DNA from: Candidatus Jordarchaeales archaeon
Lineage (GTDB): Archaea > Asgardarchaeota > Jordiarchaeia > Jordiarchaeales > Freyrarchaeaceae
Assembly: GCA_038858525.1 (NCBI GenBank)
Contig: JAWCFL010000056.1
Span: forward strand, 1-8,204
DNA: 8,204 nt
Reading direction: 5' to 3'
Below the pieces are notes generated by a model. The model did not search any database. It was not told the DNA's origin and was given only the letters and a program-made list of their open reading frames with translations. The translations under genes and the position numbers were made by a program. Shown here piece by piece: positions 1,255-8,204 of the stretch. The first letter of the stretch is position 1. Every line of letters begins with the position of its first letter.

Positions 1255-3315
1255 ATGAGTAGGAGTGGTGTAAGCTGGGTCAGCTTCGCAGCCAGCCTGC
1301 TCGGGCGAGGCAACGTTAAAATGTGGAGCAAAGATGAACTTAACGCCTCGCTCCTCCTCTTCGGAGACGTCTTAACCAAGCTCCTCCTCTTAGGATCAAT
1401 TCTTCCCATCTTGTGGCATACAGACTATCTTCCGGCATGGTACCTCTCAGCGGTTGCCGGAGTATACCATGCACCTTTCACGCTTACGGGAATTATGACC
1501 ATTCAGGGAGTGCAGATTCCAGTCGTTGTTACGGAGGGTTATCCTCTCCCTCCAGACCTCCAAATCTATGCACCCCACACACCGTGGACGCTAATATCAG
1601 CTCTCATCTCATCAAGCGCCTTTGCGACCCTAGTGGGAGGACTAGCCTACAGTTACTACGCTTACCATAAAACCGTCGAGACTGGAAAAGACTTCACAGC
1701 CCCACCATTCGGCCCAAGCCTCCCGGCAGCATTCCTGATACTAATAGGCGTCGTGGCTGCTGCCCAAAACCTCCTCGGCTTAGACATCTACACCGCTGTC
1801 TCGATAGCTATAACAGCCAACATCGCGTGCTCAATCATAGAAGCAATAATCGCCCTTATCGTAGTGGAGCGCATCAAGGGGCGTCTCCCACTTCCCGGAG
1901 TCCTCGGAGCCGCGGCAGGCATAGGATTCGCATGGATCATCGTCGGGCTCTTCAGCTTCGCAGCGGGAACACCTATAGGCGGAGTCTACGGGGCGACAGG
2001 TAACTGGCCTCAGCTTAGCCCTGCGATAGGATTGATCGTAACCGTCATGCTACTAAGTGGACTGTTATTCAAAAAGCACAGCAGGGTTCCGCCAGCTCTG
2101 GCCGCGTTGGCGATAGGCGTAATTCTGGTGGTAGCCAGCACCGTTTACGCAGGTTCAGGTGCAGGCGACTCATACCTTTACTTTAGGGAGGTTTGGGTGA
2201 GCGTCTTCGGCGGGATTGGACCCCAGTTCCTGCTAGCTTACATGTTAGGGCTTGATCCAACACCGTACGTTCACTTAGGCTGCTTCACGGCGATGTTCCC
2301 ATCGCTCCGCCTTGAATTTCTGGGAAGAGGACTTGAAGCGCTCCCATTGATCTTAGCCGTAGTCGTCCCGATTCAGGTTTACGACGTAGTGGAGAGTTAC
2401 GCCAACACGAAGGCGTGCAACCTTGAACTGGCGCGCAGAATAGGGATCAGTAGCGATGAGATTGAGAGGTGGACGGAGGAAAACGGATATTCTCCCTCAA
2501 AAATAATGCTGATAGATGCTCTTGCAAGCCTAATTAGTGTTCCTCTCGGAGGATGGGTTCCAACAGTCAACTACGTGGGCTCGGCGGGATATGTGAGGAC
2601 AGGTGCTAGAGCAGGATACCCTGTGCTGGCAGGATTACTCCTGATTTCTTTAACATGGACGGGCGTATTCTACCTCGTCCCCATGTTTCTACCCATTTCC
2701 GTAACGGCACCAATACTTCTGTTCATAGGCGGAGTAACCGTTGTTCAGGCGTTCAGAGAAGTTCATGAGGCAAACATAAAGGAAGGAGAAAAAATTTGGG
2801 GAGACTTATTCGCCGTATGCCTAGCGATGACGCCGCAGTTCTTCTCGTCGATAGCCAGCATGTTAGCCCTCAACTTCAGCCTGTCATTAACTGAAACCCC
2901 GATGAGCATGGCTCTCTCACCCTACAAGTTGCTAAACGACGTTTTCTACTTCGCCTACGAGTTTGACGGCTTAATCCTCAAGGTGCCATACGCGAAGCTT
3001 CTCGGAGCATATGGATACTGCGTAAACACAACATTCAACTACGCGTCGCTCATAACGGGATGGTCAGGGATGCTGTTCCTAGGCCTAAACGCGAGCTTGA
3101 TAGGACTTATTTGGGGGAGCATAGCTTCTGACTTGAACCATGAAAGGTTTAACCGCGCCGCAAAAACATCAATCGTTGCAGCCGTGTTATCGCTTTTGGG
3201 AGTTATGCATTCGTATTCCGTTCCACTATCAGGCCTTGAACTCTTCTCCACTCTCCCATGGGCACTGGCGTACTTAGCGGTGGCTGCATTAATTTTCTTT
3301 AGAAGACGGAAGTAG
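1255..3315 (+). CDS. NCS2 / AzgA(AGZA)-like nucleobase (probably purine) permease, 686 aa
   Basis: More than 12 hydrophobic segments. Recognisable family segments: LVGGLAYSYYAY..G.DFTAPPFGP, IEAIIALIVVERIK.RLP, VVVPIQVYDVVESYAN, LGGWVPTVNYVGSAGY..TGARAGY, APILLFIG. GGAAGGA RBS lies in the 17-bp gap after purM. Substrate is inferred from family and context. Confidence 0.75.
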   Translation: MSRSGVSWVSFAASLLGRGNVKMWSKDELNASLLLFGDVLTKLLLLGSILPILWHTDYLPAWYLSAVAGVYHAPFTLTGIMTIQGVQIPVVVTEGYPLPPDLQIYAPHTPWTLISALISSSAFATLVGGLAYSYYAYHKTVETGKDFTAPPFGPSLPAAFLILIGVVAAAQNLLGLDIYTAVSIAITANIACSIIEAIIALIVVERIKGRLPLPGVLGAAAGIGFAWIIVGLFSFAAGTPIGGVYGATGNWPQLSPAIGLIVTVMLLSGLLFKKHSRVPPALAALAIGVILVVASTVYAGSGAGDSYLYFREVWVSVFGGIGPQFLLAYMLGLDPTPYVHLGCFTAMFPSLRLEFLGRGLEALPLILAVVVPIQVYDVVESYANTKACNLELARRIGISSDEIERWTEENGYSPSKIMLIDALASLISVPLGGWVPTVNYVGSAGYVRTGARAGYPVLAGLLLISLTWTGVFYLVPMFLPISVTAPILLFIGGVTVVQAFREVHEANIKEGEKIWGDLFAVCLAMTPQFFSSIASMLALNFSLSLTETPMSMALSPYKLLNDVFYFAYEFDGLILKVPYAKLLGAYGYCVNTTFNYASLITGWSGMLFLGLNASLIGLIWGSIASDLNHERFNRAAKTSIVAAVLSLLGVMHSYSVPLSGLELFSTLPWALAYLAVAALIFFRRRK

Positions 3316-4209
3316 ACAGCTGGCTTCACCCTGCAAAGAGAAGATGGAATCGCTTTTTCCATCATTTCTCCCGTTAGAGACTAGAGTAGTTAATGGGTAA
3401 ACCTCGCTTAGCGCCGCTTCGAGGAAAAGCGAGTTGAGGGGGGTCATTTTGAGGGAGGGAGATGCAGCGCCAGAGGCAACGAGTATCCTGAGAGCCTCTT
3501 TCAGTCTGATGTCTGATGTGCCGTTCATGTAGACTCTGAGCGGGCTTCTGAGAAGGTATAGGGCGGCGTCTTGTAACCCTTTTCTTCTCAGTTCCTGAAG
3601 AGCGAGACTACAGCTTCTCGGCGGAGGAGGAGTAGCCCACACGAACGTGTCTTTTCCCACACCTTGAAGGTATATGATGCGGTTGTCGTAAAGCGTCTTC
3701 AGCACTTTTCTAGGGTTGGAGAAAAGCTTGCTTGAGACCCTTAAAACCAAGTTGACGTTAATTCCCGGTGGCATGTGAAGTATGAGGTCATAGAGCGCCC
3801 TAGCGTCCTTCCAATCGTCGTGCTCCCCTTTAAGAAGGCCACCACTGGTGACTGTAGCAGTAAGCTTTCCATCAGAAACAATGAATTTTCCAGCCGACTC
3901 AAGAAAAATTTTGCTTATCTTCTCCGCCTCGTCACCTGAAACCTTAGCCACTTCCTTTATGAGCCTTGGTAGTTCGGCTGGCACTTGAAGTAGCCTGAGA
4001 AGCCGGGCAGTAAGAGCGTACGTTTTTCCCATGAAGAACACGTCTATGTGCCTTCTTGCCTCGTAGGCGGGGAGACGCAACTCTCCACAACTAAATTTCC
4101 TGTTAAAGGAGTCAAGAAAAATTGCTCTCACGGGTCCAGCAAAGGAGGCGTTAATCGAAGCAGAGAAGGATACGGCGTCCCTGCAAGCTCGCGTAGAGCT
4201 AACAAGCAA
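3289..4209 (-). CDS. Hypothetical protein, 306 aa, third gene of the herA-nurA operon; possibly tandem degenerate winged-helix domains
   Basis: Fills the gap between nurA and the permease. TTG start 3 nt after the nurA TGA with a GGAGGGGGG RBS upstream; globular composition. No family recognised. The last 27 bp overlap the permease stop convergently. Confidence 0.8.
   Translation of the reverse strand: MLVSSTRACRDAVSFSASINASFAGPVRAIFLDSFNRKFSCGELRLPAYEARRHIDVFFMGKTYALTARLLRLLQVPAELPRLIKEVAKVSGDEAEKISKIFLESAGKFIVSDGKLTATVTSGGLLKGEHDDWKDARALYDLILHMPPGINVNLVLRVSSKLFSNPRKVLKTLYDNRIIYLQGVGKDTFVWATPPPPRSCSLALQELRRKGLQDAALYLLRSPLRVYMNGTSDIRLKEALRILVASGAASPSLKMTPLNSLFLEAALSEVYPLTTLVSNGRNDGKSDSIFSLQGEASCLLPSSKEN
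3338..3370. terminator. Stem-loop at the convergent junction; possible terminator or 3'-end structure
   Basis: GAGAA-GATGGAA (3338-3349), loop TCGCTTT, TTCCATC-AT-TTCTC (3357-3370): a 7-bp perfect stem plus 5 bp beyond a 2-nt bulge, beginning 23 nt after the permease stop. Confidence 0.35.
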
Positions 4210-4212
4210 TGC

Positions 4213-5406
4213 TCAGACCCCCCTCCCCCTCTTACCCCAGACGGCCTCTAGGCCGTGTTTAGGCTTAAACATCCTGTAGAAGACCTTTGCTTCGACACCA
4301 TTCCTCCTAGCTATCTTGATTATTCTGGTGAAGAACTCGTCAGTTAGAAAGTCAAGTAGGGGATCCTCAACGAGACTGAAGGCGTGCGCGAACTCTAACG
4401 GCCAGGGAACATTGTTCACGTTGCTTGCCTGATAATAAATAGCTGAGCAGACATACTCGAAGAGCCGCTCATCCTCCACTATGCTCCGGTGAACTTCAAC
4501 TCTTATTGGCATAGCATCATTTGGCTTAAAGTAAAAGAAGCGCATGTCTGATATGAAGTTCGCATAGTTCCCGCCGAATATCTTTCTCTTCGCCAAGTCA
4601 TCCCAGAGCTTGCTCTTGCTGGGGGACGTGATAACCAGTTTCCTCTCTCCGTTTTTGCCGGATGCTGGGAGGAGCGGGTCGAGAAGGGCTACGTCGCTAA
4701 CCCTGCCATAAAAACCTATTGATTCCGGAAGTTGAGACGAGCTTGAAATAAGCTCTGTCGAGTGAGGTGCTTTGACTATGCAGGCATGAGGGCGATCCAT
4801 GAGCTTTTCAGCCAATACGTCGGCTATTCCCCCCTCTCCATATATTCTTCTGAAAACCCTTTCATACTCCTTCTGGACTTCTCTCGAGACTCTATACTCG
4901 CGTGCGAATGGCCTATAGAACGGAAGAAGGGCATGGTGTGGGAGAATCGGGCCGTCAAGGAGGACTAAGTCACAGTTGTGGGAGTGAAGGGCGTCAAGCG
5001 CCACCAGTCGTTCAAGATACTGGCGTGAGATCGCTTCAACCCTTTCCAAGTCCTCGTCCACCATTCCTATGGTGGGAATGCACTTGGCTGCGACGCGGGG
5101 ACTATAAACAAGCGGGTTATCGCATTTAAAGAAGACAGCCACAGCCGATACCACTATAAGCGACAACCCAGCTCTTTCACTTCTGTTCGACGAGCCATCA
5201 ATACCAACAGTTAGTGCTTCCTTGGCTGCAGGGTTAACGTTCAGCTCGACAAGCTTCAAGTCTCCCCTAAAGGTCTCAATTCCCCTTATCATTGAAATGT
5301 ATGCGTTATAGAAACGCTCGGCTTCGTCTCCCAGTATTTTTAGCGCTTCATAAAATAACTGGCCCTTTTGAAGTTCTCTTTCTTCGAGTATTTTAAGAAG
5401 GTTCAA
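4213..5406 (-). CDS. nurA: NurA-family nuclease (RNase H-like fold), ~397 aa
   Basis: NurA motifs: VGIDGS (catalytic Asp), YLERLVAL (Glu), LVLLDGP (second Asp), CIVKAPHS (Lys), MPIRVEV, VPWPLEFAH (His). Likely start TTG 5406 behind GGAGGGGGTG, overlapping the herA stop; the ORF track starts at 5445. Orthology to the mre11/rad50-linked NurA is not established. Confidence 0.88.
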   Translation of the reverse strand: MNLLKILEERELQKGQLFYEALKILGDEAERFYNAYISMIRGIETFRGDLKLVELNVNPAAKEALTVGIDGSSNRSERAGLSLIVVSAVAVFFKCDNPLVYSPRVAAKCIPTIGMVDEDLERVEAISRQYLERLVALDALHSHNCDLVLLDGPILPHHALLPFYRPFAREYRVSREVQKEYERVFRRIYGEGGIADVLAEKLMDRPHACIVKAPHSTELISSSSQLPESIGFYGRVSDVALLDPLLPASGKNGERKLVITSPSKSKLWDDLAKRKIFGGNYANFISDMRFFYFKPNDAMPIRVEVHRSIVEDERLFEYVCSAIYYQASNVNNVPWPLEFAHAFSLVEDPLLDFLTDEFFTRIIKIARRNGVEAKVFYRMFKPKHGLEAVWGKRGRGV

Positions 5407-7003
5407 GACGCGCCACCCCCTCCGCGAACTCCTCATGAAGCTCAAAGACTGTCTTGCGGCCGTATCCGAGCCTTATATCCCCCTTATCAATGGACACGCA
5501 TACCGGCTCCCTTATCGGGGTAGCCATCCCGGCAACCAGAAACTCCCCCACTCCCAGCCTCGGAAGGATACCCTTTATCTCAGGGAAGTCTGTGTACCCC
5601 TCTATAGCACTCATATCGCTAGCGGCAGTAAGGCAGCCGCAAAATAAAGTGCAAAGATTCGAAAAAACAGCCTTGGAAATTCTCGATATACGCTGGTTAA
5701 CTATGGTCAAGTTAGCCCCAAACTTCCTCCCCTCCTCCGAAAGGCTGGTTATCTTCCCCAAGCAGAGGAACGGCTTCCCAACAATGACCTGCGAGTAAGC
5801 TCCCCCGGTTTCCGGAATGTAATTTTTAGCTTCATCTATCACTAGGTGTATGGGGAGACGCTTCTTGAGTATCAGGTCGGCGATTGTCCCCAGCTTCGCC
5901 TGCCTCGCCTCGAGAGGATCCTGAGAAGCATCAATCACGAGTATCCTGTTAGCTGCAAGCTTCCAAACCTTAGAGTAATCATCAATGCTACTGCCATTAA
6001 AGAAGCAGGATCCAAGCATCTTTATCCGTTTCTCTATAGCAACGCTCCAAGTCCTACTAGACTGGTCCTTACTATAAAACTCCTTAAGCCAATCGTTGAC
6101 GTAGTTCATGAATACACTCGAGTCGAGCCCAACTTCCCCCGCCAAGAAGTCCATCATGAAGAGATCGGCCGCCACCTCAACCGCCTTACGAGCCTGGGAA
6201 GGAAGCACGTCAAGCATCAGAAGCTTAACAAGGTCGCCCGAGTCTGTAGGAACAACAGGTAGATCAGAGCTCTGAAGCACCTCAAACCTACTGCAAAGCT
6301 CACCGAGATTTCCAGTAGCATACTCCCCCGTGTGATCCCAGACAAGGACATTAATCTTCTTCGACAAAGAGGATAAACCAACCAAGAAGGATGCAGCAGT
6401 CACGCTCTTCCCCATGCCAATACGGGCGAATATTCCCACACCAAGCCTCAAAATGGCAGAAGCGTCAACCTCCACAGAATAGTCCGTCTCCCTTATTCGG
6501 CCTATCTCGAAGTACTCGTCCTCCCTCGAAGGATCCTTGAAAAGCAAACGGTAATCTTCCTTACTGGCCACATAAACAGGGGAGCACGGTTTCGGCGGAT
6601 GAGCAATGCTCGCGACGCCAGGACCGACGGGTTTGCCATAAATCCTCAGCTCTCCATATTTAAGGTTCTGCTCAAGCTGAGGGATCTCACCGTAAATACT
6701 TGAAAAGTAGTTTAATACATCAGTTGTTGCCCCCCTAGTGGCGGCGTTAAGACCAGTAACCAACCCTATAACTTTAACCCCACCATGCCTAATCGTTAAA
6801 AGTTGCCCCTCGTACACATACTCGTCAGCATAGTCGAAAACCGCAAAGTTGCAGACCTTCGTGCTCGTCGGGCTTACGATAAATCCGACAGGAACTTCCC
6901 CCTTGAGAATCTGCTCTTTAGACCTCACATAGTCGTAATCCTCAACTTCTGAGCTCATGAATGCGCGCAAGAGCGCAGGATCGAAATTGTCTCCCAGAGA
7001 CAA
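5393..7003 (-). CDS. herA: HerA/FtsK-family ATPase with N-terminal HAS barrel, 536 aa
   Basis: HAS barrel (VGFIVS...EGQLLTI...VIGLV...PPKPCSPVY), IGRI strand, Walker A ARIGMGKS (6404-6427), VWDHTGEY, Walker B LVIDEAK (DEAK at 5825-5836), arginine-finger EGRKFG, sensor NQR, C-terminal LPRLGVGE. Start TTG 7003; alternative ATG 6958. Confidence 0.92.
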   Translation of the reverse strand: MSLGDNFDPALLRAFMSSEVEDYDYVRSKEQILKGEVPVGFIVSPTSTKVCNFAVFDYADEYVYEGQLLTIRHGGVKVIGLVTGLNAATRGATTDVLNYFSSIYGEIPQLEQNLKYGELRIYGKPVGPGVASIAHPPKPCSPVYVASKEDYRLLFKDPSREDEYFEIGRIRETDYSVEVDASAILRLGVGIFARIGMGKSVTAASFLVGLSSLSKKINVLVWDHTGEYATGNLGELCSRFEVLQSSDLPVVPTDSGDLVKLLMLDVLPSQARKAVEVAADLFMMDFLAGEVGLDSSVFMNYVNDWLKEFYSKDQSSRTWSVAIEKRIKMLGSCFFNGSSIDDYSKVWKLAANRILVIDASQDPLEARQAKLGTIADLILKKRLPIHLVIDEAKNYIPETGGAYSQVIVGKPFLCLGKITSLSEEGRKFGANLTIVNQRISRISKAVFSNLCTLFCGCLTAASDMSAIEGYTDFPEIKGILPRLGVGEFLVAGMATPIREPVCVSIDKGDIRLGYGRKTVFELHEEFAEGVARLEPS

Positions 7004-7093
7004 AGGACCAACCCCAGCAGACTACATAATAACTCAACTAACCATACAAACTACAAATAAATTTATTACTAATGGAAGTATATCCTATCATGA

Positions 7094-7109
7094 TATATAA
7101 ATTTTTTCC
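7094..7109 (-). promoter_or_regulatory. Candidate BRE/TATA promoter of the herA operon
   Basis: The minus strand reads GGAAAAAA-TTTATATA (purine-rich BRE then TATA box), ~90 nt upstream of the herA TTG. Confidence 0.6.
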
Positions 7110-7291
7110 TTTTTTTGTGATAGTATTGCCTTAAAAAAATTAATTATTTCGTCATGTGGTCGTATGGAAGGAGAATGTTTCTCAGAGTGCCGGAAAGGAT
7201 TCACAGGAGTTAGGTAAGATTTCGGTTTATTGTTCCTATTATAGTATAATAAATTAACGGGATTTTCGTGATAGGAACAGTCATGTTTAGA

Positions 7292-7306
7292 GGAAAAACT
7301 TATAAG
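7292..7306 (+). promoter_or_regulatory. Candidate BRE/TATA promoter of the wHTH cluster
   Basis: GGAAAAA-CTTATAAG; predicts a transcription start near 7330. The box sits in a near-palindrome (AAAAAC-TTATAA-GGTTTTT). Confidence 0.5.
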
Positions 7307-7356
7307 GTTTTTTGTGTATTGATTCTATCAAATAACTTCCGATTTTATTTTTTTGA

Positions 7357-7659
7357 GTGAAAGATTGTGGGAGTGAACGTCTGGTGGAGGACGTGTTGAG
7401 AACTCTTATGGATCTGGATAAGGCTAAGACCAGGTTGGAGGTCTTGAATGCCGTTCTAGATTATGGCCCTGTATCTCCATCCGAGGTCGCTGAGAAGCTT
7501 GGCTTATCACAGAACGCCGTTAACATTGCGCTTCACTACTTGTCTAAGAGCGGCATTGTTAGAAAAGTCGAGAGGGGGCTTTACGAGGCGAACTATGCTG
7601 TTTTCTGCAAAGCTTTTTTAGCTTTAGCCTTTAAGTTGAGAGATGTTGTTGGGAGGTGA
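7357..7659 (+). CDS. Small winged helix-turn-helix DNA-binding protein (wHTH-1), ~91-100 aa
   Basis: RLEVLNAVL..GPVSPSEVAEKLGLSQNAVNIALHYLSKSGIVRKVERGLY is a typical ArsR/MarR/TrmB-like wHTH. Alternative start GTG 7384 has GGGAGTGA 7 nt upstream. Confidence 0.9.
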   Translation: MKDCGSERLVEDVLRTLMDLDKAKTRLEVLNAVLDYGPVSPSEVAEKLGLSQNAVNIALHYLSKSGIVRKVERGLYEANYAVFCKAFLALAFKLRDVVGR

Positions 7660-7665
7660 AGGAAC

Positions 7666-7938
7666 GTGAGCATGCTTGGGGATAGTGTTTTGAGGCTTCG
7701 CGGGGGGAGCTTGAAGGTGCTGTCGCTTCTCTCGGTTTCAGTTAAGCCTCTTAGGCCGAGCGAGATAGCTGAGATTCTCGGTATGCCGTTGAAGGACGTT
7801 GGAAAGTACCTTGTGAGGCTCTCGGAGAAGGGGTTGGTTTCGAAGGTTGAGGTGAACGGTTCTCCCGGCTATGTCTCCAAAATAGACTTACTAGAGCTAC
7901 TTCTGGACCATGAGAGGCGTTTGAGGAATTTGGAGTAG
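7666..7938 (+). CDS. Small wHTH DNA-binding protein (wHTH-2), 90 aa, with C-terminal amphipathic/coiled-coil helix
   Basis: LKVLSLL...PLRPSEIAEILGMPLKDVGKYLVRLSEKGLVSKV; tail LLELLLDHERRLRNLE. Perfect GGAGGTGA RBS (7652-7659) 6 nt before GTG. Confidence 0.9.
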   Translation: MSMLGDSVLRLRGGSLKVLSLLSVSVKPLRPSEIAEILGMPLKDVGKYLVRLSEKGLVSKVEVNGSPGYVSKIDLLELLLDHERRLRNLE

Positions 7939-7952
7939 GCTGAGGTCTTACC

Positions 7953-8204
7953 TTGAGGGTTGAGGAGCTTGAAGGTGTCTTTGAACGCATACTGAGTATG
8001 CGGGAGAGCTCGCTGAAGGTTTTAGTTTATATTCTAGTGAAGGGGAAACGAGTTACCCCTAAGGAGATTATTGATGAGACAGGGTTAAGCCAGAATAGCG
8101 TCTGGAAAGCTGTTAGGCGGCTTGAGGCGGCAGGCGTTATAAGATCTGTTGAGAGGGGGTGTTACGAGGCGAATTATGGCTTCATACTAGCCCTGTTGCT
8201 TCTT
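7953..8204 (+). CDS. Small wHTH DNA-binding protein (wHTH-3), 3'-truncated by the window edge; absent from the ORF track
   Basis: Hand translation from TTG 7953 (GAGGT RBS at 7942-7946): MRVEELEGVFERILSMRESSLKVLVYILVKGKRVTPKEIIDETGLSQNSVWKAVRRLEAAGVIRSVERGCYEANYGFILALLLL, open to the window end. Shares GLSQN and VERGxYEANY with wHTH-1. Confidence 0.9.
   Translation, partial: MRVEELEGVFERILSMRESSLKVLVYILVKGKRVTPKEIIDETGLSQNSVWKAVRRLEAAGVIRSVERGCYEANYGFILALLLL

Follow-up and report, generated by a model that had tools for sequence, protein, structure and literature searches.

A divergent HerA–NurA gene pair with winged-helix neighbours in Jordarchaeales

The window, that is, the whole 8204 bp stretch of DNA analysed here, is an entire contig (C56) from a Candidatus Jordarchaeales archaeon; the assembly (G000) comprises 2.09 Mb in 63 contigs and is an estimated 92.7% complete. 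Its principal feature is a minus-strand run of three genes: a herA paralog (5393–7003, 536 residues) encoding an ATPase of the HerA/FtsK type (PF01935), a nurA paralog (4213–5406, 397 residues; PF09376) and orf306 (3289–4209), which encodes a basic protein with three predicted tandem winged-helix (WH) domains. An AT-rich divergent control region of 353 bp (7004–7356) lies between herA and a plus-strand operon of small WH genes. HerA–NurA is the archaeal counterpart of the eukaryotic and bacterial end-resection machines. In what follows, f1 denotes the family of the window genome and f2 its sister family (Freyarchaeum type) in the same order, the Jordarchaeales.

The three minus-strand genes are closely packed. 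The stop codon of herA (TAA, 5395–5393) lies inside nurA, whose TTG start at 5406 produces an overlap of 14 bp; the nurA reading frame is open back to 5445, and the TTG start is conserved and matches the 397-residue gene calls of relatives. The nurA stop codon (TGA, 4215–4213) is separated by 3 nt from the TTG start of orf306 at 4209, just 5′ of which stands a Shine–Dalgarno-like run, GGAGGGGGG. This gap measures 3 nt in f1 and 1 nt in most f2 genomes. At its distal end orf306 overlaps by 27 bp the 3′ end of a convergent gene for a 686-residue membrane protein. From these junctions herA, nurA and orf306 form a three-gene operon with predicted translational coupling, in agreement with an earlier sequence-only reading of the window, which had described the genes as tightly coupled and their number as exactly three. 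The same reading had noted that mre11 and rad50 are missing beside the pair, and neither is present in the window or in a 21.6 kb locus from the same species.

On the complete Freyarchaeum chromosome (G006), nurA and orf306 are split by a non-coding insert of 317 nt (L032:9735–10051; G006:C1:894734–895050), of which one partial copy is found elsewhere (72% identity over 118 nt). Rfam gave no match in the insert or in the window, and the insert folds no better than its shuffled counterparts (z = −0.65). It is probably the remnant of a small inserted element.

The window HerA scores 49 bits against PF01935 (cut-off 23.2), and its residues 59–508 align with HerA from Sulfolobus solfataricus (PDB code 4d2i) over nearly the full length. 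Its Walker A (GMGKS, residues 196–200) and Walker B (VIDE, residues 388–391) motifs are invariant in seven orthologs; GMGKS is a variant of the GxxGxGKS/T consensus in which Lys-Ser is retained. The ATPase motifs are intact, and the protein is predicted to be active. Orthologs across the order share 70–93% identity. The N-terminal HAS-barrel domain of HerA is the part that docks NurA. A search with the HAS-barrel family PF09378 gave no match in the window HerA at E-values up to 0.01; positions 3–188 of the NCBIfam model HerA_Thermprot align with its residues 39–236.

Scores against more specific models are low. Against the repair-HerA equivalogs NF040937 and NF040819 it scores 43.9 and 34.8 bits (cut-offs 800 and 970), and against the anti-phage HerA models NF042943 and NF042944 it scores 38.9–45 bits (cut-offs 800–850). 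The PADLOC HerA models give 80 bits for the window HerA and 170–195 bits for both other HerA paralogs of the genome; since these Mre11-Rad50-linked and C10-type proteins score far higher, the match is regarded as generic. A weak match to CedD is limited to residues 165–230, around the Walker A motif.

NurA scores 52.9 bits against PF09376 (cut-off 21). Its DG, LDG and AH motifs align with those of S. solfataricus NurA (PDB code 2ygk), and Asp70, Glu132, Asp151 and His341 are invariant in an alignment of all three paralog classes. These four residues correspond to the metal-binding residues Asp51, Glu105, Asp126 and His411 of Pyrococcus furiosus NurA (PMC3300031). The AlphaFold2 model [mean predicted local distance difference test score (pLDDT) of 69] has 2ygk_A as its best match in the PDB (E = 4e-10), followed by the NurA proteins of Thermococcus kodakarensis and P. 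furiosus. The nuclease motifs and, by model, the NurA fold are retained, and NurA is predicted to be active.

The genome contains three nurA–herA pairs, located on contigs C28 and C10 and in the window. On C28, nurA–herA is followed by genes for a metallophosphoesterase (Mre11) and for Rad50 with a zinc hook, so that the search proposed in the sequence-only reading for a second pair linked to mre11–rad50 was successful. Downstream of the C10 pair, and with the same orientation, come genes for a Rio2 kinase and a 674-residue DUF460 protein; the whole stretch (C10:48114–54254) may constitute a functional neighbourhood. The window HerA is 25–26% identical to the other two, which share 31% with each other; the window NurA aligns only partially with the other two NurAs, at 25–30% identity. 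In a maximum-likelihood tree of 30 NurA sequences, NurAs of the window type (from G000, G002, G006, G009 and one outlying metagenome-assembled genome, MAG) form a clade of their own (support 96/95) with branching that tracks taxonomy, and the closest NurA outside this clade is 5.6 substitutions per site away. The C10-type NurA clusters with NurAs of at least four other Asgard families, which indicates a pan-Asgard form, and the Mre11-Rad50-linked NurA stands apart on a long branch of its own. The window pair is thus paralogous, as had been suggested from sequence, and its NurA falls outside the canonical branch. A 497-residue NurA-like protein from G084 also entered the window clade (branch length 4.3), probably by long-branch attraction; it has no HerA gene or WH array beside it and was set aside.

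Two observations concern the other pairs. The herA gene on C28 is split (19041–19402); a tRNA-type intron was considered and rejected, as the interruption is a scaffold gap of 92 N (19176–19267) with an exact 135 bp duplication on its flanks and thus an assembly artefact, neither a frameshift nor an intron. In f2 (G006 and G009) no ortholog of the Mre11-Rad50-linked herA was found (best match 32–33%). These genomes carry four or five NurA homologs, among them a NurA-containing protein of roughly 646 residues, and one homolog lies a few kilobases from a divergent Rad50-like gene (685–726 residues). By gene content, f1 and f2 thus have different complements of resection genes.

The orf306 protein is strongly basic (pI 9.6, net charge +12), as is each of its domains. 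Its AlphaFold2 model [pLDDT 78, predicted template-modelling (TM) score 0.78] consists of an N-terminal helical part and three predicted WH domains at about residues 60–125, 130–195 and 196–275. No match was found in Pfam, NCBIfam or PADLOC. A profile built from 15 orthologs and run against 1.84 billion representative proteins returned three matches, strong and of full or partial length, all evidently from its own family. The best Foldseek hit was the RNA polymerase III subunit RPC34 (8iue_P; E = 4.8e-3 over 254 columns, TM score 0.22), followed by ScpB and ESCRT-II; all matches other than RPC34, the SMC-associated kite proteins ScpB and JetB included, had E-values of 0.1 or worse. An exhaustive aligner (VIA) matched single WH domains with Z scores of up to 6.2, a search of the ESM Atlas retrieved archaeal proteins with two WH domains (TM scores of 0.33–0.37 by query) and the language-model look-alikes scored at most 0.84, which is at the level of noise. 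Tandem-WH adaptors such as RPC34/RPC6 (8iue_P), ScpB (3w6j), ESCRT-II and Stn1 are likewise built of consecutive WH domains; the TM scores of 0.2–0.3, the identities of 12–18% and the lack of a family profile mean that the arrangement is alike and homology is not demonstrated. The possibility that orf306 arose by fusion of array genes was also considered, and hhalign comparison with 22 small WH proteins gave a probability of 0.3%, which does not show it. The orf306 protein is restricted to this lineage and, by model, has three WH domains. Co-folding of orf306 with NurA and the N-terminal 165 residues of HerA gave a median score of 0.01 with one run at 0.56, which speaks neither for nor against binding.

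Three genes of the WH array lie in the window. The first, wH1 (7357–7659, plus strand), has an uncertain start (GTG 7357, TTG 7396 or ATG 7408); the gene call on a contig of the same species is 87 residues long. The second, wH2 (7666–7938, plus strand), encodes 90 residues with HTH_IclR and TrmB matches, and the third, wH3 (7953–8204, plus strand; HTH_24, 36 bits), is truncated by the end of the contig and has a full length of 99 residues. Longer contigs from the same species (L072–L075, up to 68.7 kb, HerA protein 100% identical) carry five WH genes of 87, 90, 99, 99 and 110 residues, and f2 has six. The head-to-head arrangement with a winged helix–turn–helix (wHTH) cassette described in the sequence-only reading therefore stands, and its count of three genes was an artefact of the contig end.

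The best-conserved member of the array is wH2, with 74–92% identity in the order; wH1 orthologs share 55–90%. wH1 has generic wHTH matches in Pfam (MarR_2, TrmB and HTH_24). Scores against the Lrs14/Sta1 models NF040939 and NF053606 (wH1 23–26 bits, wH3 19–22 bits) are far below the family cut-offs of 90 and 80, and the likeness is therefore considered to be of the generic wHTH kind. The small WH proteins also weakly resemble the helix–turn–helix part of Csa3/CARF regulators (E-values of 1e-5 to 1e-7) and have no CARF domain. By language model, wH3 is closest to small wHTH clusters of Bathyarchaeota and Nitrososphaerota (score 0.95, to be taken as a lead only). In f2 there are WH paralogs that are neutral or acidic. 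The gene wH5 (‘SNLSH’ type) is intact in G006, f1 and the outlying MAG; in three f2 genomes it is a decayed gene, every frame of which is interrupted by stops and in which similarity survives over ∼30 residues only (L038:14952–15302, L039:11081–11429 and L035:2364–2715). wH6 is absent from f1.

The control region stands out in composition, with a GC content of 0.36 in the bin 7001–7500 compared with about 0.49 elsewhere in the window, and an alignment of eight orthologous spacers reveals conserved blocks. Two of these are 40 bp palindromic boxes. Box 1 (7084–7123, CCTATCA-N26-TGATAG) contains the TATA-like sequence ATATATAAAT and lies 81 bp upstream of the herA start; its minus strand reads as a TFB-recognition element (BRE)/TATA-like sequence, GAAAAAATTTATATA, directed at herA. 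Box 2 (7235–7274, CCTATTA-N26-TGATAG) lies 83 bp upstream of the wH1 GTG. The half-sites, TCCTATCA, form an inverted repeat, are about three helical turns apart and flank a TATA-like AT-rich core. The distance from box 1 to box 2 is 151 bp in the window and about 185 bp in f2. Boxes were also found in six other spacers (G001, G002, G006, G007, G008 and G009), with a length of exactly 40 bp in both families; five of the six contain two copies, and in G002 the pattern found box 1 only. In five genomes, including one complete chromosome, the module locus is the only place at which boxes with the TATA-like AT-rich core occur, which points to control that would be private to the module. A wider regulon was considered and discarded: matches to a loose box pattern elsewhere are at about the control level or slightly above it and have no AT-rich core.

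The module is conserved across the order. orf306 is present in 10/10 other genomes of the order (34–80% identity); a search of 30 further Asgard genomes did not find it. The arrangement of herA–nurA–orf306 facing the WH array is kept in the ten other Jordarchaeales genomes wherever contigs allow, so that the co-occurrence of orf306 and the wHTH genes with the pair, which the earlier reading had proposed to check, is confirmed to that extent. Among 200 Asgard genomes, NurA of the window type was found in the Jordarchaeales only, and the same was true of HerA of the window type among 400, about 390 of them from outside the order. Scans of genome and metagenome contigs returned Jordarchaeales loci only, using very specific back-translated patterns that could miss distant relatives; word-seeded protein searches gave NurA relatives only at identities of at least 50% and one HerA at 61%.

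Between f1 and f2, HerA is 70–72% identical, compared with 64% for PurM and 63% for the C10-type HerA, and this higher conservation between families indicates strong purifying selection on HerA. The corresponding values are 50–55% for NurA, 34–37% for orf306 and 74–77% for wH2. The flanking genes differ. In f1, purM and the membrane-protein gene lie at one end of the module; at the other, beyond the WH array, are redox and biosynthetic genes, which encode a pyridine-nucleotide disulphide oxidoreductase of the Pyr_redox_2 family, a PALP enzyme, Thi4, FdhD and NifS/NifU. In f2 they are genes for DUF362, aldehyde:ferredoxin oxidoreductase, a nitroreductase and an Arf-like GTPase. Because the flanks differ between families, the module moves as a unit among housekeeping genes. 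Pfam searches of the flanks in three lineages found no integrase, cas, Sir2, DUF4297 or DndC-like gene, and the 21.6 kb same-species locus contains no CRISPR or other repeat array.

One outlying MAG (L071; GCA_014730365.1), labelled Heimdallarchaeota by NCBI and of unverified placement, carries a related locus with HerA 61% and NurA 41% identical to those of the window; beyond Jordarchaeia and this MAG, no close relative of either window-type protein was found. It has six or seven WH genes, including clear orthologs of wH1 (43%) and wH2 (52%). No orf306 was detectable there and the CCTATCA boxes are absent, with other AT-rich palindromes in the spacer. Just upstream of the L071 herA, on the same strand, is a 63-residue zinc-ribbon open reading frame (L071:9606–9797; CPRC...CNHC).

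There is low-level transcription of the herA operon in situ: one stranded hot-spring metatranscriptome yielded 34 reads that map to the window at ≥95% identity. Where these reads cover the membrane-protein gene, which is encoded on the plus strand, their first mates are on the minus strand, and over orf306, nurA and herA they are on the plus strand; as these mate strands fit the usual stranded library, both are taken to be transcribed in the sense direction. Read depths are alike (0.2–1.4 against 0.3–3.8). None of the 34 reads fell on the WH genes. Contigs from a second RNA library, in which DNA carry-over is possible, cover most of the window, wH1 included.

The core of the module resembles canonical HerA–NurA as known from S. 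solfataricus (4d2i and 2ygk), T. kodakarensis (9x1l–9x1p) and P. furiosus (3tal): the protein families are the same, the genes are adjacent and coupled, and the Walker A and B motifs, the Asp-Glu-Asp-His nuclease centre and the NurA fold are shared, so that the same core action is most likely. It differs from the canonical operon in that mre11 and rad50 are missing and herA precedes nurA, and it adds the three-WH protein, the array of WH genes and the operator boxes.

Extra pairs have been in print since 2012, when several nurA–herA pairs per genome were reported, of which one is canonical and the rest have no known role; Pyrobaculum has at least three, one of them in a CRISPR-linked nurA–csm6–herA arrangement (PMC3396285). 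In S. islandicus, the stand-alone nurA–herA operon SiRe_0094/0095 is activated by the wHTH protein Csa3a, which binds two palindromic sites about 50–140 bp upstream (PMC5587795). The Jordarchaeales module shares with these Thermoproteota examples the multiplicity of pairs, the stand-alone pair and the two upstream palindromes; unlike them it has no CARF domain, csm6 or nearby CRISPR array, and its WH paralogs are encoded within. A 2026 review describes Asgard NurA as ‘completely uncharacterised’ and lists four NurA homologs in Candidatus Freyarchaeum, attributed to lineage-specific duplications; it gives no gene neighbourhoods and uses neither the word ‘winged’ nor ‘paralog’ (PMC13748450). The G006 (CP147778.1) ortholog of the window nurA is probably among these four. 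By the present analysis that paralog would be no spare copy: together with a HerA more conserved than PurM, a multi-WH partner, a fixed set of small DNA-binding proteins and a private operator, it forms a unit that evolves separately and is strongly conserved. In the published literature we found no paper on the herA–nurA–triple-WH operon, the WH array or the boxes.

Taken together, these data lead us to propose, with about even confidence, that the locus is a chromosomal and vertically inherited third HerA–NurA paralog module, specific to Jordarchaeia, and would act as a DNA-processing machine of the cell that is autoregulated and has WH partners. Like its canonical counterpart, the machine would use a HerA ring to push double-stranded DNA into a NurA dimer for degradation from an end. 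At least one WH protein may bind the boxes and gate the access of TBP and TFB, so that both divergent operons would be self-regulated. orf306 is a candidate for this box binder, since orf306 and the boxes are both present in two families and both missing from the outlying MAG. The remaining WH paralogs and orf306 are probably DNA-recognition or loading subunits in the place of Mre11-Rad50, and the cell’s own DNA, in repair, recombination or replication-linked processing, is a more likely substrate than invading DNA. If the WH proteins are indeed subunits, the module would represent a new way of targeting a ring translocase–nuclease to DNA and would provide a handle on the role of the non-canonical nurA–herA pairs known since 2012 in Pyrobaculum and Sulfolobus.

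Several points weigh against this proposal. The direction of the promoter in box 2 is ambiguous. The co-occurrence of orf306 and the boxes amounts to one phylogenetic contrast and is weak as an argument. The dispensability of wH5 and wH6 would fit redundant regulators better than an obligate hetero-oligomer. HerA–nuclease pairs recur in defence, and a position in the core genome would be compatible with an anti-invader role. A more far-reaching form of the proposal, in which the WH array and orf306 would form a hetero-oligomeric recognition and loading platform docked on HerA–NurA, replacing Mre11-Rad50 as the sensor and representing an old archaeal ‘winged-helix-guided’ class, we consider unlikely.

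The alternatives divide the evidence differently. The pair could be a back-up for end resection that does the same job under particular conditions, with the WH array and orf306 as plain regulators, a reading that we regard as possible though somewhat doubtful. Operator boxes that are unique to the locus speak for regulation, single WH genes are dispensable, some f2 paralogs are neutral or acidic and the control of the second Sulfolobus nurA–herA operon by Csa3a is a precedent. However, five or six one-to-one WH orthologs in fixed order far exceed the needs of one operator pair, and the array is also present in the distant MAG that lacks the boxes; in addition, the translational coupling of orf306 to nurA is typical of subunits made in step, and 25% identity to the other two pairs is too divergent for a simple spare. 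Were the WH proteins regulators only, the locus would still offer a clean case of archaeal promoter control by palindromes flanking a TATA box.

The sequence-only reading had put forward a candidate DNA-processing or defence module, and a chromosomally fixed anti-invader system, in which the WH proteins would sense or mark foreign DNA for degradation by HerA–NurA, is favoured by analogy only. HerA ATPases paired with effectors act against phage (PMC11472057, PMC11291478). Sir2–HerA, DUF4297–HerA and TdpAB (8wfd) combine a HerA-type ATPase with a nuclease effector, and TdpB (8wfd_G) matches the NurA model with an E-value of 1.7e-5; the weak likeness of the small WH proteins to Csa3/CARF regulators and the CRISPR-linked Pyrobaculum pair point in the same direction. 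Unlike the Sir2–HerA, DUF4297–HerA and TdpABC systems, the module has no Sir2, DUF4297 or tdpC-like gene and is part of the core genome, vertically inherited and slow to evolve. It is found in every genome of the order that was searched, branching in the NurA tree agrees with taxonomy, PurM evolves faster than HerA and three lineages have flanks of the housekeeping type; searches of plasmids and phages gave no match to NurA. A PADLOC check of the flanks, as the earlier reading had suggested, returned no hits and no defence-specific signal, and the same holds for the 21.6 kb same-species locus; the scores of HerA itself, generic in PADLOC and 39–45 bits against the anti-phage cut-offs of 800–850, agree with this. 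The defence proposal is therefore not upheld, and we judge such a function decidedly unlikely. Less probable again is a DNA-translocating machine for another process, for example chromosome segregation or dimer resolution, DNA uptake or the termination of replication; NurA would then trim DNA and the WH proteins would recognize specific chromosomal sites. HerA does belong to the FtsK–HerA superfamily of pumping ATPases, the kites ScpB and JetB are among the orf306 fold matches and the very high conservation of HerA would fit an essential chromosome function. Nonetheless, there is no membrane anchor, FtsK gamma domain or nearby Xer, SMC or pilus gene, the weak fold matches reflect a generic tandem-WH arrangement and the CedD match is confined to the Walker A region of HerA, making this reading very unlikely.

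Two further genes, both on the plus strand, complete the window. The polytopic membrane protein of 686 residues (1255–3315), convergent to orf306, has no match in Pfam, NCBIfam or PADLOC, and the label ‘permease’ given to it earlier is not verified. It adjoins the module only within f1 (64–83% identity) and, on this evidence from gene order, is not part of it. The purM open reading frame is listed as 38–1237 with a TTG start at 38; homology begins at about residue 46 and the gene calls of relatives are 357–363 residues long, which puts the probable true start near position 170.

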